64,000 bases of DNA from Botryllus schlosseri (GCA_051294905.1 CM119371.1:24306001-24370000); one strand, 5' to 3'. Numbered from the stretch's first letter, positions 2 through 39,070 are shown. Numbers and translations: made by a program. Notes: generated from the sequence alone by a model not told the origin.

Positions 2-1339
2 GTGGGCAGTACGAACACAGAAGCTTTGGGAAATGGGCGTGGCGTAACACCAAGTGAAAAAAGGAAACCAGCAAACAACCGCTCGACACCGTCTCCGGCT
101 TGGGAAATGCTAACGACTGCCACTGAAGCAATGTCGTTACCAAGGTTCCCGTCCGCGCACCAGGAAGTCATGAGAAGGGGGAAGGAATTGGCGAGCCAAA
201 ACAAATCGGCGGAGGCGATAATTACCAGAAGAATGACTCACGAGACCACCACGCAAACGAAAATAACCGACCAAAGGTTAGTAGAGACTGATTGGTCCGG
301 CTTTGCAGGAACTACGGTTTCCTACCAGGTTTCCTCCGATCGACATGTAGACGGTAAAACAACACCCGAAGCGAGTAGAACTACCTATGTAACGACTAGC
401 CCTCTCCCTAACACTACCGAAACGAGCGAGACTCCAAAGGATCAGGAGGACGCCGTCGTCCCTTTGGTGACCGTTGAACGGCTGACAACAACAGTATCAA
501 AGACTACAGCGCCGAGACACCTACCATCCCAAACTCTAGGATGGCGGATGAAAACGACGCTGGTGCAAGTTAGACGATCACAATTGGTAGCTGATAAAGA
601 GGGGCGGTATAAAACTGTTAAACGAACTGATGTGCTTCATGGGAAGCAACAGTTGCCAACTAGCGCGCGAAACCTACCCGAAGAAACGACGAAAATCAGT
701 GGTGGGGTGTCCACAACAACGCGTGTGAACCCGGTTACCCCTACAGACGTTCTGCAGGACTCCAGAGGTGATGACGGGACCGACATCAGAACGAACTACC
801 AAAACTCAGACCACAACCGAAAGGTAAGTACCGAAACAACTGTTTTGTATTTAACAGGAGACGACAAAGATGACTCGTCCCCGAGGAGGGTCGAACTAAG
901 GAATACTACCTTGGAGTCAACGATGGCTGACGCATCACCGCAGCCTGGGCCGAAAAATCAAAGGTTGGGAACACCCGCGCCTGAATATTCCCGATTATCA
1001 AGAACCACCGTGCGGGAGACAACCACAGATTTCGTTGACTACAACTATACTCGATGGCTGCACGAACTGGTGATGATGGAAGGTGGATATAAGGTAAGAG
1101 AATTATCCTTGATCGATAGGATTATTATGGAAGGTGCGAAACTGATACCTATCGTGGAACCAGTGGTTGTAATAATGGTGGTAACAGGGTTGGTTGCTCT
1201 GTCGATAGTGTTATGGGTAGGTTGTATAAAGTGTCGTCGACGTAGAACCTTGAATCTTCTGAGGAACACGAGGAGACGTAACGGAACAAGTCAATGGATG
1301 GCGATAAGAGTAATACGGAGCACAACGGAGAATGAATAA
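2..1339 (+). CDS. Thr/Ser-rich mucin-like type I membrane protein, env-like ORF of a putative LTR retroelement; 5' end outside the window
   Basis: 445 open codons with no introns; Thr-rich; N-glycosylation sequons (NRS, NKS, NTT, NYT); hydrophobic segment VVVIMVVTGLVALSIVLWVGCI followed by KCRRRR; paralog at 34057-35106 sits behind Gypsy-like pol motifs. Confidence 0.7.
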   Translation: MGSTNTEALGNGRGVTPSEKRKPANNRSTPSPAWEMLTTATEAMSLPRFPSAHQEVMRRGKELASQNKSAEAIITRRMTHETTTQTKITDQRLVETDWSGFAGTTVSYQVSSDRHVDGKTTPEASRTTYVTTSPLPNTTETSETPKDQEDAVVPLVTVERLTTTVSKTTAPRHLPSQTLGWRMKTTLVQVRRSQLVADKEGRYKTVKRTDVLHGKQQLPTSARNLPEETTKISGGVSTTTRVNPVTPTDVLQDSRGDDGTDIRTNYQNSDHNRKVSTETTVLYLTGDDKDDSSPRRVELRNTTLESTMADASPQPGPKNQRLGTPAPEYSRLSRTTVRETTTDFVDYNYTRWLHELVMMEGGYKVRELSLIDRIIMEGAKLIPIVEPVVVIMVVTGLVALSIVLWVGCIKCRRRRTLNLLRNTRRRNGTSQWMAIRVIRSTTENE

Positions 1340-1812
1340 ATCCGAAGGTAAGAATTGGTGTTTAAGATTTAGATGTAAATACGGGATTTTCATAGTTTGT
1401 TGTATGGAAGTACTGAAGCGTAACGTTATAATTTTTGGCAAATCGTTAAGAAAAATGGTGATAGGTATCATGCGTACAAAACAAATCCATTGGCGCATAG
1501 TTTATGATGAGTCCCAAGCATTCCGTATTTCACGTAATGGGCGTGAACAAAAAAAACTGTGAGTCATGATAAGATAGCTATGTAACGAAGCATAAATCAA
1601 TAGCAGTGCATCGTTTATAATAGATATCAAGTGAATTATTTTACGTAATGGGTGTAAACGGAAAAAACTGAAACCTCGTAACTAGAAATATGCTGAGTCA
1701 TGAAATATTAATTCGAGAGAATTATAAAAGAAAAAGGTTAACGTGTAGAAGTGCTTAGTCAATAAAGTGATCACCATAACCGGATAATGTTGGTGTATTG
1801 TGCACTAGTTCC
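500..1812 (+). repeat. Dispersed repeat homologous to ~34265-35466 (env-like ORF plus 3' flank)
   Basis: Co-linear similarity from ACTACAGCG through GTGCACTAGTTCC in both copies. Confidence 0.9.
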
Positions 1813-5479: not shown

Positions 5480-8400
5480 CCTTATTGGAATGAGCTACCT
5501 ATCCCGCCAGCCGTACGCCACCTATACTTTCGTTATGGGGATTGCCGACCGCCGCTGCTCAGATCGAAAGAAGTTCAGTTAGTTACCGCTTGATTTAAAT
5601 TACGTCAAGACCGTGGGACAAAATGGCATAAATGGCGATAAACAACACTTCAGTTTCCAATAATATTTATTGCTTCTCATCTCTTAACGCTCTTTTGGTG
5701 TACAGGCTATTTGTGCAATAATAATATATAGTAGGTAGTATGGTAGATTTTTGTATTTATGACTCCGCAAAATTTGGGGATCCGCTGACGTTGAAAACTC
5801 GCGTAGGTGTTCTACGGGTTGTTAAGGGTTAAGACCCACTGAGCTAGAAATATGTCGTAATCCACTAATATTATAGCGCAAACTCATCGGTTGCAGTGCT
5901 CAAAATCGGGGAGTATGAATGAACTAGTTTGTTCTCCACGACGTGGATAAAATGAAATTCATTTTATATCGATTATACAGAATCACCATTATTACTGCGA
6001 TTTGCATTTGTTCAATATGCATTTATATTCTCTTGCAGCAACATGATGTACCATTTGACCATTCGTGCGTCACGGCTTGTTGCTTGACGTAAAGAGTGCT
6101 GTTATATGTGAAATCGTATTTACGACAGTACGCTTTTGATTCGGCTAATATCATTGCTGAACAGTTTAGTTCATGGATGGTGATTTCATATCTCGTGCCA
6201 TCTCTTCGACAACAACTACATATAAATCAACTTGCTTCACTGTATTCAATCGTATATATTTTCATTGATAACTTCATGTATTTGTTAGTTTTGAAAGCCT
6301 CGAGAACATATACCGGAATTACCTTTCCGTGCATTGTATATTCCATGATAGGATTTTGTTTTCGTGTGATTCTACAGATACAACGTATACAATTTCCGGA
6401 CGGAAGTAACGTTTACAAGCGTGCGTCAATGCGGAACTGAATTCGAAACTTTGATGATATCAAGATTAAAAGAGGGCGAAGTACCAATAATTCATCGATG
6501 CCAAATCAACACATGGGACGGAAATTTCAGACTTGGAAAATTTACGAAATGTGTGAAACTAAATGCCACGATGTAATTCCGAAAATCAGGAAAGGAAGAT
6601 GCGTTGCGGTTTTAAGCACTTTATCTTTACCTTTAACATTTTTGAAATTATTATTGAACGATTTTCACGAATTCTAGTTTCCAAAAAGTCACTTAAACTG
6701 AAGTCAAACTGGTGGGGAATGTTTTTCAATCAATATTACGAGATAGTATTTGTGGGAAGGTACATGGAGAATCATCACATCTCTGCAATGTTAGAAATCC
6801 ATGTATAATCAATTACTATGGAGCCAAAACGGCCAAAACCGATGTTCATATTTTTGAATAGAACGTTACGAAATCGTGGGTCGAAAATAAATGAAGTCCC
6901 GTAGAAATGACGTCGCGAAAGTTGCAAATTAGATTATTGTGGAAGCGATTTATCATCAGCAACAAATATTTGTGTGTATTTTGAGAAATGCATGGTAGCA
7001 TATAATTGTAGTATGGTAGTGTTTATGAATTGCCGTTTCATGAATTAGTTTGAAATTTACTCACAGAATTCGCTTGATTTTTAAAGTAGTCTTCCGTACT
7101 GATTAACTTACTGTTCTGACATCGATTCATGATCTCTTTTCGTATAGTAAATTACTAAACAAACATCTCTGTAATCACGTGATGGTTTCACTGTCGTCGC
7201 CAAAGTATAGTCAGAGATTATCGGATCGCATAGGATTTATTGTGCATGTTGGATTAGACTAAATGACAAATATTTTGGTATTTACTCTCTTTTGAGATCT
7301 CCACATTTTAGTTGATATGCATGTAAAATTTGACCTATCCTGCTGTCGTCGTCACATTTAATACTATTATATAATACCGGAATAATCACGGGGGGTATAT
7401 GCAAAATTACATCAATAAATGCTAAAATCCTTTATTTGAAGAACGATAAATACTAAAAACTGAACTGATTGAAATGGGATTACGTAGTGAGTTTCCGAAT
7501 CTATATTGAGATGTTCAGTACAGCCGTTTAATTAATCAGTGTGTATTGATCAATAAATGTTTAATCACCAACGCGATGACTCTTTGAACTATATTTCCAG
7601 GATTCAGGTTAGGCATACAACCATAAGGCTTTCATTTACTTATCCAACATTATAGCATACTGCGATTCGAAAGTACAGCTAGGCCTATACCAGGTGAACC
7701 AGAATTATTTACAAGTATTTCCGAAATGCCAAACGTAATATCTGCAATTGTGGATGTGCCGGGCGGCTTGCTTTCAATCATATTAAACAGTTAAATGAAG
7801 GGGAAAGTGGCGATCCTGTCTCATACCATATTTTACGGGAGTGGCCAAACTGAAGCTCGCCAAGTTCCCGCGTCTCATTAAGTCTTTGATTGCGACTATT
7901 GAATGATTAGACACACCTGCAATTAGAATCGATGTATATTGATTTCGATTATGAAGCAGCACATATCTCAGGCTTTGATTTGGGCTTCCAATAACCATTA
8001 TCTACTCAGGGTTCATATTTGGCGATGCAACAGACACCACGGAATAATCGCGATTTAGAGTCAGATTTCTATTTTTAGACAGCTTCATTATCGGGTACTG
8101 TTAAAGTACCGACCTGATAACATCGTGTGATGGTCCTTTAAGCTTGCGGGGTTGCTGGGAAAGTTATCGTAGTGGTTGCATCCAACGCTAGGTACACAAG
8201 CGTGCCTATGGTTAAATTCCGCGACAGAGTTTAATCTGGGCTCTTGATCCCCCGTCTCGCCGAACTAACCCAGTGTAAGACCATATATCATATACCATAT
8301 TCTACTTTAAAAAAGAAACGATTGTAAAGTGACGGAAAGGAGATCAACATTAACATGAAATACTGTGACTTCGGGCACCAGGCCGAAATGGGTGCCAATT

Positions 8401-8581
8401 AAGAAACCGTAACTGGTCGTTTCAGCATCGTCCTATCTGTTTGTTGCGTCGCATTGTGTTGGTTGGTTGGTTTTGAGGTACTCATAGTTTTTGTCGACTA
8501 CTGCGGTCATTCACACCAGGCCAATATTTTCAATTTTTATTCCGTAATTGCTGACTGATATATACGGCTTATATAGGCTTT

Positions 8582-9881
8582 AACATACGTGAGCAAGTAT
8601 CTACCAAGCTCCTGAATGTCCATAATGGATTTCAACCATCCCGCGGGCTGTACAACAGAGCATATCCTGGCACTGCGCACAATCATTGGCACCTGCCGCT
8701 CACACAAAAAGAATGTTGTGGCTGTCTTTGTTGACTTTGCAAAAGCCTTCGACTCGGTCTCGCTCCCAGCATGGCGAATATCCTCAGATTCTATGGAATT
8801 CCTGAGGTGATAAGGAACGCCATTATGGCCATCTACATTGACACACGAGCGCGAGTCCGAACAGATGACGGTCCAAGCGGAGATTTTACCACTTCGGCCG
8901 ACGCACTTCAAGGTGACACCTTGGCACCATTCTTGTTCGTGACAATCCGTGACTTCGTGCTACGAACGGCTTTCCCGGACAACTCGGACCTCTTTGAATG
9001 GCGGCCACGGCAAGGAACGCGTAGGCGTACGACTCGCGAGGCTATCCACGTAGGTATTCTCGCCTACTCAGACGACCTCGCCTTGATTGCCCCGAATACC
9101 GCATCGGCACAGCGCCTCATCAACCAACTAGAGGCCGCCGCTGCTCTTATTGACCTCCAGATTAATGCCAAGAAGTCTGAGGTTCTGGCCATACCAGCTC
9201 TGTCGGAGAACGCGACACCAATTCAATTGGGAGAAGTCAGGCTCAAGAATGTCAAGATTTTATATACCTCGGTATTGACGTCACGGACTCTGGAAAAGCA
9301 CTGAAGGCGGGGCGAGCAAAGGCCTTGGGTGCGGAAAGACGGCTATATTGCCTCTTCCACGCAAGTGCCTCACCCCAGCTCAAGACCCGCATTTTCTCTG
9401 ACACTGTCGAGCAGGTTCTTCTCTACGGAATAGAAGCACTCACGCTGACAGAAAAGCTGGCTAAGACTCTAAACGCCAACTACGATGCACTCCTCCGCTA
9501 CGCACTCGGCATCCACCACCCGGAGCACATATCCACCAATGCACTGTGCAAACTTACAAAAACAGTCCCATGCCGTTTGCTGGCTGCTGAACGACGCTTC
9601 CGCCTAATCGGTCATCTAGTGCGGCATCAAGACGATCAACCAGCCGCCGCCATCATCAACCACATTCCGACGGAGCCAGACGCAGAGGTGGCTGGAATAG
9701 AAGCACATGGCGCTCGACAATAGAGACCCAGCTAGTGCAACGCGGACTTTCGCTCGAAGACGCCCACGACCACCCACGATGTAGGCGCTTAACAAGGGCC
9801 CAAAACGGATTATCTTGATGTTCTTTTGTTTCCTGTTTTCTTTTGGCCTTTTATTTACTTATTTAATTGAAAGTCGTTATA
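8582..9881 (+). mobile_element. 5'-truncated RTE-clade (RTE-X-like) non-LTR retrotransposon
   Basis: 12-bp TSD TATATAGGCTTT (8570-8581, 9882-9893); RT motifs inside. Confidence 0.85.
8616..9723 (+). pseudogene. Frameshifted LINE reverse transcriptase
   Basis: TTEHILALR, FVDFAKAFDSV, LQGDTLAPFLF, LAYSDDLALI, LQINAKKS, VLLYGIE and LIGHLVR spread over three ORF pieces. Confidence 0.9.
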
Positions 9882-10569
9882 TATATAGGCTTTTTGTAAT
9901 ATACCGCTTACGTGGGTCAGGTGGCGAGGAGGAGCCTAGATAATCCTCCAACACTTAGGAATCGGACTACTGAAGTCGACCACATTCGGGCTCGGACCAG
10001 CTACTCCTGGTGTTACAGCCGCGGATTATACCACTGCGCTATCTCCCTACAATCGCATTGTGTCTTTTGTATCGCATTGTACATTGTGTGTGCCTCGATC
10101 GGATCGATATTTATAATCCGACGGATATTATAACTCTACAGTGTTGACGATTCTATATTAATCAACTCCAAAACTGAATATCATGATGTGTCTTTATTTT
10201 ATTGCCAGCACACGACATAAGGTCGATAGCCACTGCATTTCACTAAAATGAGGCGGAGGACATTTATCGCAACTATATTGCAATACTGGCTGAATCCATG
10301 ATTCCATTTTTTTTAAATCGAATCCATGATTGCACTCGCGTTATATAGCTTGACCTGTTAGGCACTGCCGATTTTCAGGTTTTGAATGCTATTTCTGGGT
10401 GGTTCCATTGCCTTGATGTAAGTTCAATGTATATTAGAAGAATTAGCAGGACTGTAGCTTTCAAATAAGATCAACTTTTTTTATTTTGAGCGCTAGAGTC
10501 GTGATCTATGGGATTAGCAATTTAATTACCGTTTAATGCTATGAACAAATCTAAAGACCATCGAATCAC

Positions 10570-10908
10570 TCGTCTGGCCAAGACCAATAATGCGTAAGCT
10601 TATATTCCTTTGCAAGCCCTAGTCGAGATTGTTGGCAACGCCGCGAAGGAAATTGATTTTCTGGGATTACTCCAGTTGATACATTTGGTAACGTTTAATA
10701 AGTCAGCATGTTCCTCAGCATTGTAGCATAATGTTGCCCAAGTCGCCGTCTTAGTTATCTTCTATATCAATTCACTGAAAGGTAGTGTTGTAATTAGCAA
10801 TATGGCGTCATGTGACGTCACATGTTCACGTTCGCATTCACACAGAACCTTTTAAAAAGGTTCGCGTTCCCACGAACCTGAACCTTTTAGGGGTTCGCAT
10901 CACCCCTA
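10570..10908. mobile_element. Partial copy (one end) of the TAGGG/GGTTCAC hAT MITE family
   Basis: Similar to ~16020-16391; ends GGTTCGCATCACCCCTA. Confidence 0.7.
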
Positions 10909-12697
10909 GGCACTAATATCTTGAAATCGTAAAATGAAGTCGCATTGAATCGCGCGTATAGCGAGAAGGGAATTCCAAGATCAATTAAATCTCTCAAAGA
11001 ATAACAAACCTCTCAAAAATTTGGGAGTCAATTTGTAAATTCAAATTTCATGTCGACGGCTACCAACACAGACTAATTGAATTTGGGCCGCAGGTTGCTC
11101 ACTTAAGCAAATCAAACGATATCATATTTGTATAGCGAAAGTGTATATAACCCTCACCCCTTCCTACCGAAGACCAACAACAACTTATTGCATGTAATCA
11201 GAGCATCTACAGTTGTTTGTATCCTTTCCGACCCAACGGAGCGCACTAGATGTGGAAAGTAGTTTCAGGCACCCGTTCACGTCGATTACTGACAGTTGTA
11301 GGATCTGAACCGCTGATGACTAAAATACGGTTACCAACCAACCTGCGTCATGACGCTGTTCATCAGTGGCGGCTCGTCACAAGATAAGGTAGTGGGGAAA
11401 GGGCTAACAACTCCGTGCTGGAAAGCGTGCGAAATTTTCCGGTAAAATGACGACACAATACCATATTCCTACAAACAAATGTCATTTCATGATGGTCATT
11501 CGACTCACCAATATCATTGACTTTTCACCTTGGCGCCGTGATATGAGAGTACCCCATGTTACTATCGCGGTGTCGAATTGATCGCGTAAAATGCTATCAA
11601 TCGAAGTCATTTACCTAATTGATTGAAAATCACCCCATATTGAGAGAACCTCATTGTCAAAGTGGCAACGATAAGAGACATTTCACGTAAATTCAATAAA
11701 TTTCATCGTATCAATCACATTAGAAATAACACGCAGATTCTTATATACCCGATCAATGCGCCAACAAACAAATACGAAATTATGTTGGTCAGGCTGCCAC
11801 ATGATTTTCACTGCACCAGCAATTGAATTTCACTACCCTCTATCAATGCACACATGAACAATTTAGCGTTATTTCGCCAATTCTTATCACTGCTTTAGAT
11901 AACTATGCCCAGATTTATTTCCAACTAGAGACGCTGATTGTGTTTGCTGCGGTGTCGAATAAACGACGACAGTAAAACAAAAATATAGTGTCCCGATATC
12001 CTCGGTATCCGTTTCTCATTCAATACCTCATCCGCGTCAGCGGTGTCTTACAAAAGAGATCGAAATAAGCAAGTCCATGTCGGAAGATGTAAAGAGAGAT
12101 CATTCCAGCAAAGAAAACTCTAATTCAAATTCGACGATACGGAAAGCACCGCCTAAACAGGACGAAAAAGAAAAATGTGTCGGTGGAACGCAAATCAAAT
12201 CAACCTCCTCAACTACGAAAGGCGGGAATAAAAAGACGGCAAAAATCGATTTGGGCGCAGGATTGTTTAAAACGCAGCATACACCCGCAACAAAGGAGTT
12301 CCGCTGCTTAACAGTAAAATTGCACAAGTCTGTTGTGCAGAGATCAAAATTCGGAAAACGCAGCAAGTCCGAGTCGGAAGATGTAAAGATCAATGATCAT
12401 AGAAAAGTAAACTATGATTCAGATTGCAAGATACGCAGATCACCGTCAAACCAGGACGAAGAATAATGTGCATCAGTCGAAATCGATGTTCTACGAGCGT
12501 CAGCGCTGCCACATGTTCCGCAGGAGTCGTATTTTCAGTTGCGATGGTTGCAGGAAAGGTTGTCTCGGGTTAGCAGCCTCGACACGATGTTGAGGATATC
12601 TAAAATGATTATGACATCCACCAACAACACGGTATCAAAATGCTCCAATAATACGTTTACATGTGGTGTTTTATCTTTTGAACTTTGTGATCTAGAC

Positions 12698-13354
12698 CTT
12701 CTCAACCTTTTACACCCCACGGACCGGTAAAATTTCAAAAAATATATGGCGGACCGGTTGTCCATCAAAAATTGAAATCAAAGCAAAATGTCTATTATGA
12801 AACCGTTTTCGTACGTATGGTACCAGAGCAGTGGTTCTCAAACTTCTTTAGACTCATTTATGATAGTGAAAAAATTCGCTCCCCCTTTTCGTCATATCAC
12901 AAAATGCAACTGGAATACTTGCAATCCGAGGCATGGTTATGACCGTTGATGAGAGAATTATAAAATATGAAATTAAGACTATACACAGAGTAATACCAAT
13001 GAATTGGTGGGAATCGCGCGGAGCAGGCTAAAAGTAATCGCATTTCCGATTCAGTTAATGAAACCTTTTGTTTTAGTTCACACATTAGTATTCAAACTAG
13101 GTTTTATGTTTTAAATTCCAGGCTACTTTTCACGGGCCAGTCAGAATCGTATCGCAGGCCGCACATTGCTCAGGTTTGCGTTAAATCGAACATGCTTCCA
13201 GGCCTAATGTTACCTCGCGAAGTTCTTATCATGTTTAAATTTAATGCTTTATTCATTTCATCAATTGACAAGCCTTCAACATTTTGAATCTTGAAATGAA
13301 ATACGTGGTGGACAGGCAGCGAAGTCGTCGCGGACCGGCGGTTGAGAACCACTG
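12698..13354. mobile_element. hAT (Charlie-type) MITE with a nested fragment starting at 12829
   Basis: TTCTCAACC ... GGTTGAGAACCACTG with a damaged left end; flanks ATCTAGAC / ATCTAGAG. Confidence 0.65.
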
Positions 13355-21339: not shown

Positions 21340-21570
21340 ATAGAGTGCATGCATACTTACCCTAAAGCAGACTTGGACAACTAGATCATTCTAGTTGCCT
21401 AATTTCCCTAATTTAGATCGAAATGTCCGTAATCTAATTTTAATCTAATTTTGGTACAAGTATACTAAGAACCCTACTCTACACGAAGAACACTGTTTGA
21501 AATTCGAGAGAATGGTTGTAAAAGAAGTGCATTATGACGAAGCATATAATTTATTGAAGTTTATTTGAAC

Positions 21571-21744
21571 TTATATGGAACAGGTGAACTTAACCCCACC
21601 AAAAATTGACGTGTAAGCGTAAAGAAAATGGTAGAATTGTAGTGTAGAGTAATCTGAACTTGAGGGTATTAATGTGGTGTACGTGTAAAAAGGATAATTG
21701 CTGGGAACAACCATAAATTGACAGAAGAATAATTCGTCGGCCAT
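21571..21744 (-). CDS. Candidate 57-aa aromatic-rich small ORF
   Basis: aaaATGG start context; MADELFFCQFMVVPSNYPFYTYTTLIPSSSDYSTLQFYHFLYAYTSIFGGVKFTCSI*; two AATAAA right after the stop. Confidence 0.25.
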   Translation of the reverse strand: MADELFFCQFMVVPSNYPFYTYTTLIPSSSDYSTLQFYHFLYAYTSIFGGVKFTCSI

Positions 21745-24700
21745 TTTGAATGAGTCGAAATATGAAATCGACGCCGCGGCTATAATCAGCGAACTGCGGC
21801 AACATTTTTAAATCTGGCCCGATAGAGTGAATATATCCGTTAAAGCTTGATGCGATGCGAATTCAGGAAGTTATAAGGAGTCGAATTTCATAATCTTTGC
21901 CATACGCTAAACTCGATACCAAAGAGATGCGATTATAATAAAGTACCTAGCCGGCCAAAGGCTCGTCACCAATGTTCCCTATAATTTTTCACGAGCCTGC
22001 GCAAATACGCCAACTCACTGCGCAGGCCCTTGGACAGCAGTGCGCAACCAGCCCCTAGAGAGTGATAAACAGAACTTCTGGGGGACTTCGCCCGCAAGAC
22101 TCACCTCAGGCTACACGCTTTTCACCGCTACTAATCAACTATGTCTGGTCTTCGTTTAGTGGGCGTTCCGACTAAACGCGCGAAGCGCCGAAAAATTTCT
22201 ATAGCTTAGGATCAAAACAGCCAATATCATCGGGAATTGCGTATATTGCTATCAATTTTAATCCGTTCTATGCTCACGTAATCACATTTACAGGTAAAGC
22301 TGATCGAGTGAGATGTGTTGGAAAAGGTAGGATCCCTAAATATAATAAATATCCTCGGGCGTACCCGTTGGCATAATGACTTCTTTACATCATGCTATTT
22401 TGTGACCTCCTATCTGATATGCCAAAAGATATTGAAATATGGACACAAGTAATTTTGATTCCACTATGACGATATGGTGACATATTGTGGGTTTACTACA
22501 AGACAGACATACATGCACGAGAACGCACTTGAAACCAAAACATGCGATCGATATAGGCCTACCGCGGTAAAACACTGATGTGACGTCTTAATACCGGCAA
22601 TGCGCTCGTCACTATCAAGACATACAGTCAGATATAATGATACGGATATTCAAGTCTGATTGAAAACGGGAACAAGATCAGTGACCTTATCGACAGAGGA
22701 TACCCGTTCAAACGGATCGAATAAAATCACAAATTTGTGCTGCTTAGAAGCTGATCTAATGCAACGCCGTACAGTGCTGCATTCCCCGATCAACGTTGGC
22801 AAAGGAATGAATATCTTCAACAATATTGGTGCTTGTACTTGCATGTTCTGCATATTGTACGATATCACCATAACGTGGTCAGATTCGCCCGATGGAAGTG
22901 ATGACTTCGAAAATTCGCGGCATGTAATTTTACAGTAAATCTTACAATATATTCATGCTACGCGGAGAAGAATATTCATTAGTTTCCCGCAGTTAATTTC
23001 GAGCTAGCCCATTGTTATTTATAACTTTGTTAAGCCATGTTATTTCGCCATTTCCACTAAGGATTGCGCTATTGATATGATGTCAGACAGTATCGCTGGA
23101 TTGAATGTTATGAAGCTTGCGTTGTACGCAACAAAATGGGCGGTCTATATCTACGTTACAGGGAACGGGTGCGAGTGCTAGATCAAGCCCATGTAATACC
23201 TGTACGGCCAGGGCCGGATCAAACTGGTACTGCACCCGGTCCAGGCTGGCTTATATCATAAAAATGGACCACTGATCACGCAACGGTCAATCTCACCGAC
23301 CCCAAATTAAAATGAGACAAAACGGCGTCATTATCAATAAAGTGCGAGTCGTGGTTTGATTATCACGCTTAGATTGGGTGCGCGATCTTCGAATTCTCTG
23401 TCGTATTGGAGGTGGGCTCCATTGCATGAATATCAGCTGATCTTCAGAAGTACTGACGTACAAATTAGCACGATCAAAGCCGCATACTGAGAATTATCAA
23501 GGATTAATTATGTGTGCGAAATAGGCCGTTGAGTTCTGATGTGCGTAAGCTTAGCTGGTTTGCTGGTCGGTTGCGTAACATGAAATAATGAGATTACCAT
23601 ATGGATAGGCCGCATAGTGGAAACCCGCGTGAACGTATCACTTTCCATGAAAACTCGACGACTATGCGGCCGACATAAGTATACAAGCGAAGATGTATCT
23701 GACGTGATACTGTACCTATACCAAAGTAATGAGACCTGTAGTTGTACTTTGTTGACCCTTTTAGAACACTGCATCTTTGCGAATATTCGGCGAAAGAAAA
23801 TATAAAGTTAATTCACAGCCGGCCAGGATTCGCCACCAAGACGATTGCAATCCAGGCTTTTAGTTACGCGGTAATTACAATACGGGTGTATCAAACAGCT
23901 ACGGCCCATGAGAACTACGCATAGCCTAAGAATTGCGCTGCGGCAGCAAGAAAATACACGACCTTTAGGATTGCTGTTGAAATTAGTCCAATAAATTCGC
24001 CTCAGGAAAATCAACGATTATTCGGAATTCTAGACTCGCACTAAATTCAGGTGATCAACGCCGTCGGTATATGATGCCGCATCTGTTTAACGCAACGCGC
24101 AAGAATATAGGTATTCTGATTTCACCTGTACATGGGAGATGTTCTAACGTAGGGGTGTGCAGCGATCGGGTGCGTATCTATGTGACAAAGGTCTTGCGAA
24201 ACTAACCCGTTCCACGCTGGGACACATGAAGACATTAAATTTTGTCCGACATACAGCTAGGGAAAGTCCGGTGCCAACAAGATCGGTGACGATAAAACCT
24301 CTGCCAAAATGACCGTCGCTGGTTGACTAAAACCTTCGACATTGCTATGTCCAATCGTCGGAATGCTCGGCGTGGGATTGGCTGTCGCGCGAATCCTGCG
24401 TTTGTTCAAGTAGTTTGAATTCAAGTAGAATAGCGGAGCGGACTGTTTCAGGCTAGGCGGCTTCACGGGTCGAATTTCAAACCGTCGGGATTCGCAATTC
24501 TGGGGAAATGAGATCGTGACAGTAGCGAGGATGCGCCATATGGTCACTGTATAATGAAACCCGCATGAACTCGCTGCGGCTTCCTGACTGAGCGCTTCGA
24601 GGACGGTCGTCCTAAGGTAACTGGAATATAATCCCGTACGGCCGAAATGATTTTATAATGGACTATATTGTATTAGTTCATTCCTTCGAGGCAAATCAAA

Positions 24701-26075
24701 AGGAATGTACCCCTTGCTTCAGTAACCAGAAAATGTCAACTGTAAGGCGATACTGTTCATCATGAAAACTGGGATGTTTCGTAAAACTGGGACGAATGCA
24801 AGTAATCTGATCTTAGCATTGCAACATTGATCTGACGTGAACCTTGGGCGCCGTTAGTGGTGCGAGCGAACAATCTCAAATGACATGATTTACGAATGGC
24901 GCTCGGTTCAGTTATACCCTGAGAATAGTGTAAGGAAAGACCCAGTTGTAGATAAACGATCCATGGGCTGGTTAGGCTTCAATGTAACGTTAAAAGAAGC
25001 CAATTGTTAAGATGTATGCTGTAGATTTGCATACCATGATCCAGTTTGTAATAAGCTCGGTTGCACTTTGTATGCGCATAGTGAAGCAACAGCGCCCGCT
25101 GGCGGCCTAAAGAAATAGGGGTGTTTTGATAAAAAGGGGGGCTAAATATGAATCTCAAAGTCGGCGCTTCAGCCGATTATGGGTCGACGGAGCTTAAGAC
25201 GTAAAGGGTATGCCTCTGGTGCCTAGAAAATACTCTGAGATCTCGGAGTTTTGGCTACGCTTCGCATGGGAATCCGAATTGAAGGATCCTTGTTGTTAGA
25301 CATTGTGGTGTGTGGGTTGCTGAGTAAGCTTGCGAAAGAAAACCTAAATAGGATACCTACTTTACAACCAAAAAGTAAAGTATTTCCCTGAGCGGGGAGA
25401 GGGTGATTGCAGCGAGCAAGGTACTGCACTGCAAGGCATTGTATTGACGCAAAACCAAAATGGCGGCCGCCTTTTCAAAAAAAAAGGGGACCGAAACTCC
25501 CGGACCATCAAATTGCGCACGAGTCATGGCTCGTGGTCATTAATAAAGCCGAAAACAGACCAGATCGCGCACGTAGTCAGGATACTCAATAGCTTTGGAG
25601 CAAAAGAACAATTGGTCAATGGTCCCAGCTAGAACACGAATAATTACTCATAAAAAATGTAGAAAGAAAATTACTTGCCACGAGCTAGGCCCGAAATTAA
25701 CTACCAGCTATTAAGTAGAGGAAGCCTTGTTTATTCTTTGAATCAGAAACCCATATAATCGGCCGCACAACACAGCCTAATTCAGTCCAATTCGGACTCC
25801 AACACGAAGCGGAGGAATTGAAGCTCAGACAGACCGCATCTACGCACGGACGAGGCTGGCATTGTTGCACCGAGGTTACGTCATCGAAGATCAGAGCGTA
25901 TGTAAATTTAAGTTTATTCAGTATTTGATTCAAGATAAATGACCAATTAATTTGTCCAACACCCAGTTGGCAAAGTGTAGGGACTTTGCATCATCATGCA
26001 ATCATGCATACTTCGAAAATTCAATTTGGCTTAAATGATGACTTGACGGTACTTGGCTGGGCTCGGGTCGAAATG

Positions 26076-26259
26076 TGTAATGTCTCAAGGGGACTCGTGA
26101 CTCGAAGGTAGTGGTTTGATCTCCACACTGTTCTGAGGTCACAAGAGTTTATGGTTATAGCTATTCTGGAACACAGTGCAACTGTATAAAAAGTGATAGT
26201 CGTTTTGAATTCAAATAAAGGAAACGCTGAAAGACAGAGAGGGTCCGAATTATATGACA
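26076..26259 (+). mobile_element. Possible solo LTR
   Basis: TGTAATGT...ATATGACA termini, internal TATAAAAA then AATAAA, flanks AATG / ATTG. Confidence 0.3.
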
Positions 26260-26300
26260 ATTGCTAAATAAAAGAAAAACTGACTTATGGATGATATCAG

Positions 26301-27558
26301 CAGAGGTGGCCAAAGTAGTCAAGAAAGCTACTTAAGAAGAAGTAGGAGTAGCGACGGAAAAATCTACTCAAGTACAAGTAGAAGTACTTCTTCAATAAGC
26401 CACCTAAAACTACTTGAAGTAGAAGTAGAATTAACTGACTTTATATCTACTCAAGTAAGTAAGTAGTTTTGAAAACAGTCTTAATTCGTTCGCATGGACT
26501 GTCAAAAGCTGCGAATTGAGCTATGCGGCCCGTGCAGGGAGCTTGATTCGTATTGATGCATCCCAGGAGGTATCAACTTTCGACATAATAACTATTGTTT
26601 CGCATCATGGGATGCAAATTATAGTACTGATATGAAAATGCGATACTTATCTTTTGTTTACTAGAGCATCCCGTTTTTAGAGAATATCATGGGATGGCGC
26701 CCTACCCCATATTATAAGGCCCCAAGTTTAGGCGAAGAGCAATACGTAGAAAATGTATCGGATATGGTTACATCACCTTGCGTGATTATTATACGTTAAT
26801 AACAAATATTGTGGATCGCGAAAGTTATGTTTAGTGTCGGCTAGTTTTATTTTCGGAAAATAGAGGCATTACTACACATGTGTTTATGCTTTAGCATCTA
26901 TGAAAGTAAAAGTATGATGCTCACAATTAAAATGAAATACAAATACCACTTCTAAAAAGCGGATAATATATTTCCTGTATTTTGTCCACAAAGCTTAAAA
27001 GGTCATCTGCTAAAACAGGTGTAACGTTCAAAAAAGCTGGATTTTTCAGATTATCAAGACACGTAAGGGGCTGCTAGATTACAATATGATAGGTAATTGC
27101 TAGATTGCGAAACGGTAGTTTCAAATGTTGTGGTGGGCCATATTTACTGTGATGAAATATTTGATAAGGACGACAATGCGGTGTGAGAGGAACCAAGCAA
27201 TCCGGTACCTAAATTACATTCACTGATACTTTCATGAAAACATATTTGTGACTCCATTACTACTATGCGCGAAGCGCAATAAAATTCCTGGGCTTTACTT
27301 GACTCTTATGAATATTAAATGTTGGTACTCCATGAAAACAGCCGCGGAATTCCTCAAGTTATCGTTCGTATTGGGGAATTAGACTACTTCTACTTGACAA
27401 ACTGAAAATAGCGAAAATTAAGTAAGTAGATCACAAAATATTACGAAGTAGAAGTAGAAGTAGAGAAAATCAGATCTACTTGAATAAGTACCAGAAGTAG
27501 AGGAAAACTACTTGAGTAATTCCAAAAAGTAGAAGTACTTCGTTACTGACCACCTCTC
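26301..27558. mobile_element. Old hAT MITE with (AGTAGA)n subterminal arrays
   Basis: CAGAGGTGGCCA / TGACCACCTCTC; flanks GATATCAG / GCTTTCAG (6/8). Confidence 0.75.
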
Positions 27559-28483
27559 GCTTTCAGACATATTCGGTTGTAATTCGAATGGGTGATGACA
27601 TATGAAATCCTTCGCGAATATTGCCGTTTGTTCTCAAACATGTGCGGTGCATAGTCCTAGTCGCCATGGATGAAACAAAGAAGGCTACACTATATTAATA
27701 CGTTTTATCAATAGTATTCAAAACGGATCATGCTTAACGGTATTGATCCATATCTGCAGAAACCCGCTCGAATAATCAATACGAAAGGTATGTAATTCAT
27801 TTACGCGAAAATTCGAGTGGGACAGTTAGTATAGTTTAATTAAAGTCCAGAGATACTAATGTCTAGAGATATAAAAGCAGGAAATGACGAGTGCTTATGC
27901 CGCGTTTAGTCAATTAGTTTTAATAATATTTTAATCATTTCAAAACAACACGAAACTGCGATCCAGGGCAGTCGTACTAACTATCCTGTCGCGTGTAGTA
28001 ATTGGCTGCGACAGATTTGGCGAGATGAAAGTGTCTATAGTTGAAAGTGAGCCTGACTCCAGTCAAGATTTGAATATGCCGAAAAACACTCTATTATTTC
28101 GTGTAAGCTTACATGGGCCGAGCTAGGACCAAGAATTAGTGAGGATGAAAAATAATCACTAGCAGCGATAAAGTTTCCGTAGGGTATGTTGCGGCGTTGT
28201 AAATGTGTAGTATCGCAGTGCGTCAATAAATATGTGCCGTTCGCTGTGCATATTCATGCCGACAATAAGGCGGGTGCCTTTGTACCTAGATATTCCATGG
28301 TTTTGTCAGCATTTTAGAGCATTCTTGTTTAGTGTTTTTGAGGACAATTTACCTCGCTGACGTAAGATGAAACGCACTAACTCAAAAATAGCTTCAGAAA
28401 TATACCCACTTGTCGCATTAAGTAATAACAAGGACAAAGTCAAATTGGATTTATTATTGGTACTGCTAGCAGGCGATTCGAAC

Positions 28484-28678
28484 CAGGCTTGGACAACTAA
28501 ATAATTCTAGTCGTCTAATCTCACGAAATAGAGCGAAATGCCAGTAATATAATTCTAATCTAATTTGAAAAAGCTGCGTAGCTCTAATTCTAATTTTAAC
28601 ATAATTTGGAAAAAGCTGTGTAGCTCTAAATCTCATCTAATTCGGAAAAGCTGAAAATTTTCTAGTTGTCTGGGTCTG
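28484..28678. mobile_element. 195-bp hAT-type MITE, same family as the split element
   Basis: CAGGCTTGGACAACTA / TAGTTGTCTGGGTCTG; flanks ATTCGAAC / ACTCGAAA; internal CTAATT repeats. Confidence 0.8.
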
Positions 28679-28800
28679 ACTCGAAATGAAAATATATTTA
28701 CCTATATCTGAACGTCACAAGCGCTACTATTCCGGCAAGGTCAACACACTCAATACCATTCTGATCAGGACGTCAATGCCCCTGTGGAGACGCTGTAAAT

Positions 28801-29955
28801 CAGAGGTCTCAAACACGCGGCCCGCGGGCCGCATGCGGCCCGCCAGATCATTTTGTGCGGCCCGCGACGGCATTTAAGATTTTCATTAATTTTACAATAT
28901 ATAAGTGCCACATATATCTTTTCAAGTTTTAAAGTGAAAATTCGCTCTTTAATTTCTCCGAAAGCTTGAAACTATTCAACAATTTTCACTATTTGCGCCC
29001 ATGCAGTAGAAGATTCACTATTTCGCCACATTGCCAGTTCATGATGATAAACCCTGACCCTTAGACGATAGTCGTTTACAGCACTATGCTTATAGACGAT
29101 TCGTGGCTGAAATTTGTGAGTAGACTTGGACGCGACCTTTATTAGAATTACTCGGACTCGGGCTGACTCGATGGCCAAATTAAAATGACCCGGGTGGACA
29201 CGGAGTCGTGGGAATAGTAATAGATCAGAAGGTCGCAGCGAGGTATTTCGCTTACTAAGCAAGCAACCACTGGCAATCTATTAGTTACATCTTGGGTCGC
29301 TAAACCATGTTATTATAAGGCCACTTAAATGTACTGAGTGCCGTATAGCGTTACGCTCCAACGATGTAACAACAATGGTTGTTCGGCGTTCCGGCATTTC
29401 TATAACTATGACACATTCATTAATATATTTATAATGTTATTTTTCCGCTCTAATATTCGAAGGTAATTGACCATGAGCTTAATAACCCACTTATCAGGAG
29501 TATACCCGAATATTGGATTGGGCTACATTGCTAAACCCCACATGCTGTGATATCAGATCGATCTCTATTATTAATCTGTTTGATTCACAATATTCATTGT
29601 AGCTGCAAAATTATAACGTGATAGCTTTTATGATAGCATTGTATATTTTTCCGCTCACATGGCGTCTATATCTTAAAATTAATATATATCAAGTACAACA
29701 ACACTTCTATTCAAATAGTTATAAATGTATGATTTTTTTCATGCCAGGCCTAAATTGATACAAGAGTAAATAACATTTTTATGATGTGTGTTGAATGTCA
29801 GAGTGCTGTATCGGCACACATTCAATAGGAAAATTTCATCCCGTCAACTAAGGCCTACTTGGAAAGACATGGAATACCCTTATTGATGCTGCGGCCCGCG
29901 GCGTCGTAAAAACTGGGAAAATGGCCCGCGAGCTCATTTGAGTTTGAGACCTCTG
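28801..29955. mobile_element. Non-autonomous hAT (Charlie-type)
   Basis: TIR CAGAGGTCTCAAAC / GTTTGAGACCTCTG; GCGGCCCG motifs; perfect TSD CTGTAAAT. Confidence 0.92.
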
Positions 29956-32461
29956 CTGTAAATGGTCACGGAGCAGCGAGTCAGTTCGTTGGCTACTGTG
30001 TCCCTTTTGTGTTGTCATGTATATCGGGGCCTTGTGTCGAGTTTACGTCCTAGCGCTGAAGCGCCAGTATAGTTGCCGGCTATCTAATCGCAAACAACAA
30101 TGTCAACGGATTTCAAATTGCTACATCGATACCTTTGGTGCTAGACCTTGGAGAAGATCGATTAATATTCCAAAATTTTAGGGCTACTATTGTGATTAAT
30201 AAACATCGATACCTTGGTCACTAACTAGGATTAATAAAGAAGTATAATGTAACCGGAATTACTAGGCCTATAACATTAGGAATACTTCAGGCCAGTACTG
30301 CTAATATAAAGACCTTAGAAAAGTAACCCATGGTTGAACTTATCCACACATTCGTTTTTCGAAACTGATGTGTCGATGATGGAAAATGACACTAGCCCAA
30401 AACCCGCTTTGTCCGCGTATTCACTTTACGAAGTGAATGCGCCTGACGAACGCCATTTTGTCGCATTGCAATCATTACGTGTAAGAACTATGAAAGTTTA
30501 CTGTATTGGCAAAAATCAATCTGCAAAAGGGTTTTTCATGTGAGGGTTTACTATGACGTATTATTGCAACGTGACGCCTATCTTTCTTATATTGTTCAAG
30601 TACTGCATTTACCTAATCTTTGACATCTACCATCATATTGCTTTAAGATGACGCTAACATGTCTTAGATATAGGTATAAGTTATGAACATTTAATATGAG
30701 AATAGTTGGTTGTTACTGCAGTAATTTAACAGCGAGTACTACAACTGTAGGTATTAATAAGGCGTCATAACTGACCCCGCCCCTATACTAGTATCAGGAC
30801 CCTTCACCCCAACGGGACAAAAGTTTGAAAATTTGATGTGTAATGGACCATAGGACAATAAAAACATGGGTATTTAAAGACCTCTCGGGGTAAGGCATTG
30901 GAGCATATGTGAGTTCGAAATTCGCGATAAGCGTAGTCTATTGCCTATGAAGCACGATATATACGAATTAATAAAAAAGCTTAAGCACACCAATACTGGA
31001 AATTAAGGAATATAGCATGATTACAATTGGGATATTGGTTCACATATGACTATTATAAGTGAGATGGTATCATTTTGTGCTTATCTGGGACTGTGTCGTA
31101 TGCATGTTAAGTGTTAGCTATACCATCAGTTTGCTTTACCAAAAATGGCGCCACCATTTTTTCATGTATGCGAGCTTTTACAGTGAGCCGAAGTATGACT
31201 GATATATGTATGCATATCTATGCCATGTATGATGTCCACATGAATTGTACACTCAGTTGTAGTATCCAACTATTGCATATAAAGACGACATCGGTACGTC
31301 CGCTAGTTTCGGCGAACTTGTGACTCTATGCCAATGTAAATCCGCCAGTCTGAAACAGAGCCCCAAACGAAGCATCCAGTAGCAGACTATATCCAAAAAA
31401 CCGGACATTGACGGAGGCATTGCGGAAGGGTTTGACGTCTTTTGAGATTGAAGGGTGATGTTCCGATGTCCCTCTGAAAAATCTTGACATGCTATTGATT
31501 GGATCGGCTGCTTGCTGTAGTTGCAAAGTACACAGAAATAAAGCAGTGCGATGAAATGGGAGCGACTGCTAACCGAAATTGCAATGTATACATAAATGAA
31601 AAAGCTCGATTAAATTTGCTGGAATCGCTCCATAAAGCCGATGAGCTAAAATGGAAAGAGCCAAGAACATAGAGGTATTGCATTCGGAATATCGTTACAA
31701 CGAAACCTCAACAAACCCCGCGTTCTGTTGGACTTGGAATGCCCGATCTCCGAATCGACAGCACGCAAGTAGGCTACTTGATGACCCTAAGTAGTAACGA
31801 CTCAAACAAGGGGTCGGTTCCTGGACTAATTGCGGTTTGATATCTGCATCTGGAAGATTAGGGAACTCTTATAAACAAGGTGGTCGGCAAATTGGTCAAC
31901 TTGAACTCTGTGTGGTATTGTTTTTTGTGGCATCGATTGGCATATTTCTTGTATATTATATGCATGTATATTGTCGGCAGGAAATACCGTCACATTTATG
32001 GTGTAAACACACCTTGGAGTATTGAACTGTTATTAATCGTGCATAGATATGAATAGGTTAAATCTTGACCCGTGTTGTGATTGACGTATGTTCCGTGTGC
32101 CAACTTAACCGAGTTTTACTAAGATACTTCATTGCTGTCGGCATGATAATTATTGGAGTATGTTGGTTGAATTAAGCCAAGGGGCTTGTCTATTGTATGA
32201 ATAGTTTGAGCCGCTGGACCTTCCGAGGTCACTGCTTCGTTCGATCAATCTACAACCAAGGCTTCAATCAACGTCGACAAAACCGGGTTGTATAAGGGGT
32301 GTGGAAAAATGTGGAAAAGCCAGGAGATGGGGTTGAGCTCTGTGAAGTAAATCGAACCAAGTGTGGAATACTTGCATGGCAAGCGCCATGAAGCTACACT
32401 ATAATCAAATGGAGGCACCAACTGAACTTCTTCCAGGGCTGAACGTCATTTCTTGGCAATT

Positions 32462-34260
32462 TCAGTGGACGGGGGAGAGTCTGAAGACGAACACATCGAT
32501 TACCTCCTTACTATCTGCGAACGCCAATCTATGAAAAGAAAAGATCGTCGAAGGATCACAACTGGGGTTTTCTGCGCCGACACGGGAAGCGTCCTCAAAT
32601 TGAAAAACGTCGTAGAAACCTAATACCCGCCAAGCTGGGAGGAGCGGCAACCTATAGACATGAAACTACGTAATATAGGTGACTCCTCCCACGTTGACTC
32701 CTTAGTAATAATCAATTTCAACGGACTATCGGCTCCATTCGCGATCGAGAAAGGAGACCTCTCGATATTGTAGGTCTAAAATGGATTGATCATGTACAAC
32801 AATTACCAAACATAGCGACTGAATTTGAATCTCCGCCTAATGCAAACGAAGAGTTGTCTTTAGTAACGCTTCATGACGGGATCTCGTGTGATCAACGGGA
32901 CGGAACCAAAGTCGGAATCAGTCTTCGCGACACTGTAACCGATGATGGGTTGATGGAAGCTGCAAATCAGATAAGCGTCGAGCCGGCACGTTGTCTGTGT
33001 CGCCGCAGGCCGTTGCCGCTGGCGCAAGTGTCGAGATGGTAATCACCACTGGCGCGAAATGTGTCGAGTCAGGAATCCCTGCTGGCACCAATCATCAATA
33101 CGCCGATCTTACGATGGCAACTGTCTTACCTTCTTTCCCAAAAGGTCAAAAATATGGGAAATCCCTAGTGTTGGGTCAGGTAGCCCCTGCTGGCACTAGT
33201 CGAGAAAGTGTCGGGTCAGTTAGCACTGCTGGCACTAACTAAAGATGTGTCGAGTCAGGAATCCCTGCTGGCACCATTAATGAAGACGTCGAGCGCGGAA
33301 TCCCGGCTGGCGTAAATAAGGACCTGCACGAGAAAACTGGTCCTAAATGCTCTCGTGGATGCACTTGTCCGAATAACTGTAATGATTCGGCCCATAGATG
33401 CATGACGACAGCCACAGTTATGAGTAATTTCCCAAACAAAGCAGCTGTTACCGGCTAACCGGACACATGTCCGGTCATGACCGGCAAGGAGTCTGGGGAT
33501 TTTAAGATGCACGTCTCCCCAGAAACGGGCCCCGGTGGCGACCGAATCCGCCGGCGTGACGGTAGGCGTGGGCACACGCCGAGATCAGAGGTCAGATTGA
33601 ATAGGTTGGGAATCCCCGCTGACAACGAAGAGCCTCGCCCTCTCTCCACCAACACCAAAACCCCGTTCATCACGAGATTCGCACTGGGCCAATAACTGGC
33701 CCAATTACTATGTAGCCTAACCTTACGACAAGACACCAGTCCCAGCGTGTAGATGGAACTCGAAAGTCTCTGTGCACAATCGGTAGCACTGGCGAAACTG
33801 TCATACAAACCTCCTGACTTTTGACTGGCCTAGAAAATATCGCCGTTCCTGAAGGAGTCTTGACAGCCGTTTATAATCCATTTGCTTCCGAACTTGATAG
33901 CCTGCGGGGCCACCTCAGCGCCCCCCAATCCATGAAATACCAATGCGACATCGAACGTAAGGACCCATCGACTAAGCCTTTCGTTTCTGGCCCTTATAAC
34001 CTGACGCGGGAGGGCCAGGCGAAGGCACTAAAGGAAGCAATAGATAATACCTGATTTTGGTATTATTGAACAAGGTTTTGCCGAATGAAAATTGGCTATT
34101 TGTGTTGTTCCTGAGGAAACGAATGAAAGACTACAAGACAAGGCGAGTCGCACTCGATAGTAGCAAGACGGACGTCAGAGGTAAACCCCCATCCCAAGAA
34201 GTGTACATGATCGCTTACTACAGTCCGACGTGGGTAACTCCTGCGGCGAAAGACTATGAT
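32462..34260 (+). pseudogene. Decayed, internally deleted Ty3/Gypsy-like pol (dUTPase-like relic, repetitive spacer, RT N-terminus, RNase H motif)
   Basis: KDPSTKPFVSGPYNL..ALKEAID/(fs)DFGIIEQGFAE*KLAICVVP resembles the Gypsy RT start; MIAYYSPTWVTPAAKDY resembles RNase H IAYYS..TPAExNY; several stops and frameshifts. Confidence 0.6.
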
Positions 34261-35106
34261 CCAAGCACTACAGCGCTGAAACAACTGCCACCCCTAACAA
34301 TACAAGGGCGGATGAAAGCGAGGCTGGTGCAAGTAAGACGATCGAAATCGATGGCTAACAAGAAGGGGGAGTATAAAACTGTCAAACCAACTGATGCGAC
34401 TTATGGGAAGCAACAGTTGCAAACTCTTCGCGCGCGAAACCAAACCGACGGAATGACGAAAATCATTGGTGAAACACCTACAACGACGCGAGTGCATCCG
34501 GTCACCACTGCGAAGGCTCTGCAGAACTCCACGGAAGACGGCAGGACCGACATCGGAGCGGATTACCAAAACCCGGATCACAACCGCAAGGTAAGTACCG
34601 AAACAACTGTTTTGTATTTAACAGGAGACGACAAAGACGACTCGTCCTCGAAGAGTGTCGAACTAATGAATATTACCTTGGAGTCAACGATGGCTAACAC
34701 ATCGCCGCAGCCCGGGAAGAAAACCCGAAGTTTGGGAACACCCGCTCCTGAGTATTCCCGAATATCAAGAACCACCGTGGGGAAGACAACCACAAGTTTC
34801 GTTGACTACAACTATACTTGGTGGCTGCACGAACTGGTGATGATGGAAGGTGGATATAAGGTAAGAGAATTATCCTTGATCGATAGGATTATTATGGAAG
34901 GTGCGAATCTGATACCTATCGTGGAACCAGTGGTTGTAATAATGGTGGTAACAGGGTTGGTTGCTCTGTTGATTGTGTTATGGGTAGGTTGTATAAGGTG
35001 TCGTCGACGTAGAACCTCAAGTCGTATGAGGAACACGAGGAGACGAAACGGAACAAGTCAATGGATGGCGATAAGAGTAATACGGAACACAACGGAGAAT
35101 GACTAA
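34057..35106 (+). CDS. Second env-like mucin-TM ORF, fused in frame to an RNase H-like fragment
   Basis: 349 open codons; from ~34265 homologous to 2-1339, including the TM and CRRRR tail. Confidence 0.6.
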   Translation: MVLLNKVLPNENWLFVLFLRKRMKDYKTRRVALDSSKTDVRGKPPSQEVYMIAYYSPTWVTPAAKDYDPSTTALKQLPPLTIQGRMKARLVQVRRSKSMANKKGEYKTVKPTDATYGKQQLQTLRARNQTDGMTKIIGETPTTTRVHPVTTAKALQNSTEDGRTDIGADYQNPDHNRKVSTETTVLYLTGDDKDDSSSKSVELMNITLESTMANTSPQPGKKTRSLGTPAPEYSRISRTTVGKTTTSFVDYNYTWWLHELVMMEGGYKVRELSLIDRIIMEGANLIPIVEPVVVIMVVTGLVALLIVLWVGCIRCRRRRTSSRMRNTRRRNGTSQWMAIRVIRNTTEND

Positions 35107-35574
35107 ATCTGAAGGTAAGAATGGGTGTTTGAGATTTGGAGATAAATACGTGATTTTCATAGTTTGTTTTATGGAAGAAGTGAAGTGTGGTGTGATAAAT
35201 TTGGTAATTTTAGAAGTAACATTGCGATAGGTATAAGGCGTACAAAAATAAACCGGCGGCGCATCGTATGTAATAAGTATCTAATGAAGTATTTTACGTA
35301 ATGGACGTAAACGGAAAAAACTGAAACCTCGTAACTAGAAATCTGGTGAGTCATGAAATATCAATTCGAGAGAATTATAAAAGAAAAAAAGGTGACGTGT
35401 AAAAGTACTTAGTCAATAAAATGATCACCATGAACGGGTAATGTTGGTGTATAGTGCACTAGTTCCCTAATTTTTATAAGCTGGAAATTCTCTAGTTGTC
35501 CAAGTCTGCCCTAAAGTACTTTGCACTTCACAAAACCAAAGATGATTAGTAAGTAGTTCAGCGATAGAAAGAGT

Positions 35575-39008: not shown

Positions 39009-39070
39009 GACTGCAACGAGATTTAGGCTGAAATTTATGTTTGCTATAGGCGACTTTTCGCTCTCATTAC

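Follow-up and report, generated by a model that had tools for sequence, protein, structure and literature searches.

Two open reading frames in the window (the whole 64,000-nucleotide stretch of DNA analysed here) encode related, Thr-rich membrane proteins, and each frame stops 130-470 bases short of the right end of a mobile element. Our favoured reading, to which we assign a probability of roughly 0.55, is that they represent the last gene of a large multi-copy element inserted in the manner of Merlin/IS1595 transposons, and that this gene most likely specifies the attachment-type surface protein of a retrovirus-like element. The observations behind it are a long frame with a distant homologue, and a repeated element that has defined ends and a target duplication and lacks LTRs.

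ORF1 (2..1339, + strand) has 445 codons with its 5' end open at the window edge, and consists of a Thr-rich stalk, juxtamembrane helices, one transmembrane (TM) helix and a basic tail. ORF2 (34048..35106, + strand) has 352 codons counted stop to stop, with a TTG at 34057 and its first ATG at residue 26. Thr accounts for 15.3% of the residues in ORF1 and 11.9% in ORF2, N-x-S/T sequons number 6 and 7 (5 of them ahead of the TM in each), and each frame holds a single hydrophobic helix (Kyte-Doolittle 19-mer 2.89 in ORF1 and 3.13 in ORF2) directly followed by C-I-K/R-C-R-R-R-R; in ORF1 the helix (residues 388-406) and the CxxCRRRR motif (residues 408-415) lie at 1163..1246 on the + strand. An earlier note on this DNA had described two copies of a Thr-rich frame with sequons, one C-terminal TM and a CxxCRRRR tail, sharing several hundred bp of 3' flank, and these features are confirmed here. 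The common DNA spans 498-1812 and 34262-35466 (84% and 89% identity in two BLAST pieces), includes the last ~281 codons (74% amino-acid identity), and ends at the identical base, 1812 in copy 1 and 35466 in copy 2. The claim of two copies holds for this shared part but not for the first ~70 codons of ORF2, which show no relation to ORF1 and contain an RNase H-like motif in frame (34153-34257). Copy 2 does lie 3' of pol-like debris, as the note had it; however, because the RNase H-like motif is fused in frame into ORF2, copy 2 is not a separate gene following RNase H. Contigs from two runs span the junction between the unrelated front and the shared gene (X7, 34054-34446, 11 differences; X9, 34147-34434, 5 differences, depth 82), and the fused form is thus not private to this locus.

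The 3' flank of copy 1 (1340..1812, + strand) carries an AATAAA at 1761 and an internal duplication of about 111 bp (1526-1559 resembles 1637-1670), which appears as a gap of 110 bases in the flank alignment; that of copy 2 (35107..35466, + strand) ends with the right terminal repeat (35447-35466) and has its AATAAA at 35415. The AATAAA lies 45-50 bases inside the right end in both copies. The two copies are 70-80% identical in the stalk; over the juxtamembrane-TM DNA (1031-1250 against 34.8-35.0 kb) identity climbs to 97-99%, whichever codon position is counted, before dropping to 65% in the 3' flank; recent recombination, an overlapping signal or an RNA structure could possibly produce such a peak.

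A 280-codon frame appeared in 0 of 1000 order-0 and 0 of 1000 order-2 random sequences, and in a neutral simulation with the 112 observed changes, 280 codons were left without a stop in 1.6% of 5000 trials. The glycoprotein frame is open in both copies, and the element's other frames have decayed to at most 131 codons. In a HMMER search of 1.84 billion proteins with ORF2 as the query, two matches were found. One of them, P0001, is a 427-aa protein from one short Logan contig that matches ORF2 residues 105-334 (E = 1.5e-4, 28% identity) with the same frame and layout, namely stalk, juxtamembrane motif, TM and Cys-basic tail. The other, P0002, was dropped as a homologue, being a repeat protein with only 34 residues matched. 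The similarity to P0001 beats 2000 of 2000 shuffles in the stalk, 2000 of 2000 in the juxtamembrane region and 1970 of 2000 in the TM-tail, P0001 having itself been selected by the search, so that the shuffles are not independent; in the same kind of test the first 165 residues of ORF1 show no similarity to P0001. A homologue search with ORF1 gave no match among 6429 candidates, and a profile built from ORF1, ORF2 and P0001 recovered P0001 alone among 7999 candidates. Moreover, no named homologue was found among 1.84 or 5.8 billion proteins, no locus among viral contigs and no exact match among metagenome contigs. The long frames together with one distant homologue argue for a protein gene. 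Substitutions between the copies at the three codon positions number 36, 35 and 41 (of about 281 each) and dN/dS is 0.80, other frames being not higher; this even spread and the ratio thus give no protein-level purifying signal. We take the pattern to mean a genuine gene whose stalk evolves fast under low constraint, which is not proof of present function.

The expressed product may differ from the long frame, if micro-introns at three conserved donor-like motifs gave rise to a secreted, anchor-less protein or to a non-coding RNA and the TM frame were the unspliced form. AGGTAAG occurs at 822, 1092, 1346, 34589, 34859 and 35113, three times per copy and nowhere else on the + strand of the window, where 0.23 would be expected per 1812 bases, although this count was made after the fact; YAG acceptors follow 34, 26 and 48 bases after the donors in both copies, and past the donors the copies agree in 91-99% of bases at every codon position. 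We consider this quite unlikely, since the long frame stays similar to P0001 across both of the first two candidate introns, none of the 15 joints listed (247 further ones exist) lies within the ORF at the very low RNA depth available, and an intron of 26-34 bases would be very short by the standard of most animals. The three ORF bins have depths of 1.5/0.2, 0/0 and 3.5/2.0 in bulk RNA run X24, of which about 6 in 100 were read and 96% of the placed reads match only partly; these depths do not establish expression and count against the favoured reading. Among the indexed runs, no RNA run is listed as containing the sequence.

The protein looks like a disordered stalk with an anchor, and unlike an F- or gB-type fusogen. 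An AlphaFold model built with three sequences has a mean pLDDT of 36.5, with the TM helix as the sole confident part and no folded ectodomain in the visible part, and neither a structured Cys-rich ectodomain nor a fusion peptide is present in the visible 445 residues, in line with the earlier remark that no fusion-protein motifs could be recognised there. These residues of ORF1 contain just 2 Cys, both C-terminal to the TM, and no signal peptide is visible, the N-terminus lying beyond the window. The product would be a glycoprotein that crosses the membrane once: a long, disordered stalk open to O- and N-glycosylation leads through a conserved juxtamembrane helix pair to the TM anchor, and the Cys/basic tail behind it bears a Cys pair that is probably acylated. 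A Pfam search gave no env match and no sequence similarity to mucin-like viral attachment glycoproteins, only weak matches to MLANA (E = 0.36) and TMEM154 (E = 0.38). In the Atlas, the top match is an unnamed 439-aa cluster of 53 members without taxa (0.92 and 0.90; of low recognition value), and the named neighbours are host single-pass proteins (neurexin/syndecan, 0.87-0.88; TMEM154, 0.84-0.85). Pneumovirus G and the filovirus GP mucin domain are Thr/Ser/Pro-rich, disordered, glycosylated stalks with a single TM anchor that evolve fast beside a separate or linked fusion machine. The ORF1/ORF2 protein resembles these in general description and differs in that its anchor is C-terminal.

A 14,014-bp insertion occupies 21453-35466, and copy 2 forms its right end. 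To the left of the insertion lies one half of a host MITE (21365..21452, + strand), which aligns to 28481-28566 of an intact sibling and ends in the left target duplication, the 8 bases CTAATTTT at 21445-21452; to the right lie the second CTAATTTT (35467-35474) and the other half of the split MITE (35467..35515, + strand), which aligns to 28637-28686. Because the flanks are abutting halves of one MITE plus an 8-bp duplication, the 14,014-bp unit was inserted into the MITE, and contigs from two runs join the MITE parts (joints 28571-28574 to 35484-35485). Comparing the left terminal repeat (21453..21472, + strand) with the right end gives 10 agreements in 14 bases and 13 in 20. On its - strand the right end reads GG..., the shared DNA ending in CC, and both ends carry a palindromic hexamer at an equal position. 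In copy 1 the right terminal repeat (1793..1812, - strand) also starts with GG on the - strand, and no similarity to copy 2 extends past its last base. Six sites in 1-35000 match the right end at 13 or more of 20 bases, and the CTAATTTT 8-mer stands directly ahead of 21453 alone, about 0.06 sites with both 8-mer and GG being expected by chance. The host MITE carries several CTAATTT units, which makes an apparent duplication likelier by chance, and the duplication can be tested in one of the two copies (copy 2); under a Merlin-type reading, the left GG end of copy 1 would be preceded by AAACTATT. A motif of 23-26 bases is also found twice in one orientation, once about 50 bases in from the left end (21501-21526) and once 80-100 bases in from the right end (35363-35385), and is possibly a transposase or promoter site. 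Two other element types were considered and rejected: a Helitron 3' end (CTAG plus hairpin), since the similarity runs 4 bases beyond CTAG and a duplication brackets the element, and a DIRS-type overlap, since the other frames contain 8-28 stops over the shared part.

The earlier note tied the gene to an env-bearing, Ty3/Gypsy-like element, naming errantiviruses and Tor as known cases and Gypsy-like RT/RNase H motifs ahead of the second copy. An LTR-bounded element of this type is not supported, and the motifs do not establish a Gypsy affinity. This reading would make the gene the env-like third ORF of a Ty3/Gypsy LTR retrotransposon whose LTRs were lost or lie outside the window, the TIR-like ends being a coincidence or a later wrapping. 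In its favour is the order of motifs on one strand ahead of the TM ORF, which by eye we take to be protease-like, RT N-terminus-like and RNase H-like (+ strand, 32.5-34.3 kb). They lie largely in a broken, GC-richer, gag/pro/RT-like stretch (32480..34110, + strand) with 39-bp repeats at 33059-33331 and the RT N-terminus-like motif near 33920-34110. Against Pfam the motifs gave no match at E<=10 in any of the 6 frames, against the PDB only unrelated matches (E>=0.38), and against the protein database none. Similarly, tblastn and HMM searches that used 4 full-length pol proteins (taken from 11 viral loci) or small profiles gave nothing significant, and a first Gypsy motif scan gave no locus. With profiles made from 66 RT, 32 RNase H and 18 protease segments of Gypsy loci, the scores are 37.3 for the RT N-terminus (null maxima 35.3-48.9), 32.0 for RNase H (34.8-47.5) and 24.8 for protease (38.5-46.5), so that none exceeds what chance gives. 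The one pointer in favour of the motifs is that the six best of 5100 tiles in the RT N-terminus HMM all fall at 33.45-34.05 kb, at E values of 0.88-18 that are not significant; the RT core and integrase are absent from copy 2. Moreover, there is no LTR pair, self-BLAST of 21453-35466 giving just a 48-bp internal repeat, and in self-comparison the 3' flank of copy 2 has no copy upstream of the pol-like stretch. LTRs end in CA and Ty3/Gypsy target duplications measure 4-6 bp, whereas the shared DNA ends in CC and an 8-bp duplication brackets the 14 kb.

Gypsy-type elements do have very varied third ORFs, and, in the accessible text of PMC5408684 and PMC11952523, bdelloid TM ORF3 and Drosophila sORF2 are retroelement-borne proteins that, like the protein here, have a TM and no viral homology; these are short (about 220 aa in bdelloids) and lie in LTR elements, whereas the ORF1 protein exceeds 445 aa and lies between inverted ends. 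Errantiviruses and other env-bearing Ty3/Gypsy elements also place the gene of a TM glycoprotein 3' of pol-like sequence in animal genomes, but, as far as the accessible text of PMC13524379 describes them, their Env is of a structured F or gB type, which the ORF protein is not, and they carry LTRs and an integrase. The main text of that paper contains no occurrence of 'mucin', 'attachment' or 'Merlin'. Kuafuorterviruses and Troyka are likewise divergent invertebrate reverse-transcribing elements once misfiled as Gypsy, but they have LTRs and integrase, measure 5-6 kb and have no env described (PMC11673190). The Gypsy third-ORF reading is very unlikely and for copy 2 largely refuted. What remains of the earlier assignment, and agrees with our data, is an intronless-looking membrane-protein gene on a repeated mobile element.

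The ends point instead to a Merlin/IS1595-type insertion: both start 5'-GG as inverted repeats, and copy 2 has a target duplication in the 8-9 bp range. The same two features define Merlin in the accessible text of PMC8101967, according to which Merlin inverted ends measure 24-462 bp and are imperfect in some families, and a few Repbase entries exceed 10 kb; the inverted match of the present element (10 of 14 or 13 of 20 bases) is shorter and poorer, and a membrane-glycoprotein gene and pol-like debris are not listed for Merlins in that text. None of the 11 accessible supplements of the same paper is a terminal-sequence table. In copy 2 no DDE_Tnp_IS1595 transposase was found. The decayed left arm (21473..26300), whose longest stop-free frame has 131 codons, gave no Merlin transposase with Pfam, with HMM and tblastn searches from 10 loci or with profiles from 3 and 7 loci, and our own transposase profiles reached a best local score of 36 against null maxima of 39-56. 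Since no transposase was found, membership in Merlin is read from the ends, and such a lack is expected in a non-autonomous copy. Two stretches of the arm that resembled transposase motifs by eye (22.3-22.9 kb and 24.0-24.5 kb) were rejected, and a fusogen was also sought there with no Pfam or PDB match. In contigs filed as bacterial genomes (L128, L129, L130, L132 and L135), the transposase pieces are by eye nearer to animal Merlin than to the IS1595 proteins of L131, L133 and L134, and the bins concerned possibly hold host DNA.

Between the left arm and the pol-like stretch, small repeats are nested at 26330..29955, including the intact MITE (28481-28686) and a repeat of very high copy number near 26330-27560. 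A further one, at 28801-29955, is a presumably hAT-like element of 1.15 kb that is non-coding, has inverted ends of 14 bp and shows the 8-bp duplication CTGTAAAT. The nested repeats are followed by a broken frame (31798..32200, + strand) with two hydrophobic segments (31906 and 32113), which has no family match and is possibly a decayed membrane-protein gene. RNA depth in X24 is 6-13 at 31082-32337; over 31082-32650, which covers this frame, it is 3-13 per direction and higher than in the rest of the element's unique part.

It could also be that the unit is an ordinary non-autonomous DNA transposon, of Merlin type or another type with 8-bp target duplications (which are a mark of hAT and P elements as well), with a host mucin-like membrane-protein gene or exon captured in Pack style and perhaps some retrotransposon scraps, and no viral role. 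The ends and the duplication are the only firmly tested features of the element, the inner retroviral motifs are not significant, dN/dS is near 0.8, and the named Atlas neighbours and the weak Pfam matches (MLANA, TMEM154) are host single-pass proteins. These matches, however, are below the thresholds for a lead and reflect a generic TM with a basic stop-transfer, and a host origin has yielded no named homologue in either protein collection. Moreover, the frame is open in two copies while the rest of the element has decayed, and an exon of more than 1.3 kb that runs into a poly(A) signal so near the element end fits the element's own gene. We regard capture of a host gene as unlikely.

The element belongs to a repeated family of tens to hundreds of copies. 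In DNA run X1, covered from 27000 rightward, summed contig depth (which is not itself a copy number) is 7,671-19,827 over 30140-35477 and 15,799-18,444 in 27628-28255, whereas 35792-36105 has 487 and a flank contig with no differences has 10.3. Organisms B-D contribute small shares that are possibly carry-over, and no second host is claimed.

Returning to the attachment-protein reading, we infer a retroviral origin of the inner debris, a transposase, an attachment role and any particle as follows. A Merlin/IS1595-type DDE transposase, rather than an LTR integrase, would insert the element, as its short imperfect GG...CC ends and 8-bp duplication suggest. Copy 2 would be a decayed, internally deleted, non-autonomous unit in which a deletion fused the gene, from its middle onward, to the RNase H-like remnant, and copy 1 would be the right end of a diverged relative. 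Such a unit may be a defective derivative of a larger gag-pol element, moved in trans by a Merlin-type transposase; the parent would replicate by reverse transcription and bud with host membrane, the protein would putatively serve attachment and not fusion, and a separate fusogen and the cut-and-paste transposase would be supplied by intact relatives. The full form of this proposal we hold only tentatively, at somewhat less than even odds: the gene would encode a mucin-like glycoprotein dedicated to attachment, and its owner would be an enveloped element that reverse-transcribes, lacks LTRs and integrase and relies on a Merlin/IS1595 transposase for entry into the genome, with attachment and fusion split between proteins and with defective copies that keep the gene open after the loss of gag-pol and spread to tens or hundreds.

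By analogy, the closest concept is Teratorn, a piggyBac transposon fused to an alloherpesvirus (41-182 kb), which in the accessible text of PMC10175614 and PMC6431247 gives a precedent for virus genes, an envelope glycoprotein included, between the inverted ends of a cut-and-paste transposon; it differs in being derived from a DNA virus and in using a piggyBac transposase, and the word Merlin does not occur in either review. If our proposal is true, the element would be a retroviral counterpart of Teratorn, and its stalk-like attachment protein a second kind of envelope gene beside the F- or gB-type fusogens of described invertebrate retroelement Envs. In the literature we found neither an element joining Merlin-type ends to retroviral genes nor a mucin-like Env of an invertebrate retroelement, either of which subscription journals, Repbase reports or bioRxiv supplements may contain, and an orphan surface-glycoprotein gene as the cargo of a large Merlin-type insertion was not found described for Merlin transposons. 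If the proposal holds, the present locus would provide exact ends and an empty-site control for one more family. It would also raise the question of why a defective, amplified subfamily keeps this frame while the rest decays, for which a helper function, receptor interference or recent recombination could be considered.

Taken as a whole, the window is animal-type DNA rich in repeats; it holds carbonic anhydrase exons and several remnants of transposons, and no tRNA gene. A broken remnant of a non-LTR-type reverse transcriptase lies at 8735-9723 (+ strand; RVT_1, E = 1.2e-6), and a piggyBac-type transposase in two frames lies at 36393-37993 (- strand; PF13843, E = 1.9e-52 and 3.2e-10). Eukaryotic carbonic anhydrase exons are found at 39047-39301, 45175-45480 and 48449-48712 (- strand) and at 53479-53703 (+ strand); between them are a DDE_Tnp_4 remnant at 42102-42422 (+ strand, E = 4.5e-6) and a weak hAT dimerisation match at 43121-43366 (- strand, E = 0.011). 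One carbonic anhydrase exon is doubled by a 1.2-kb inverted duplication, the two arms of which (48073-49267 and 52877-54078) are 91% identical.
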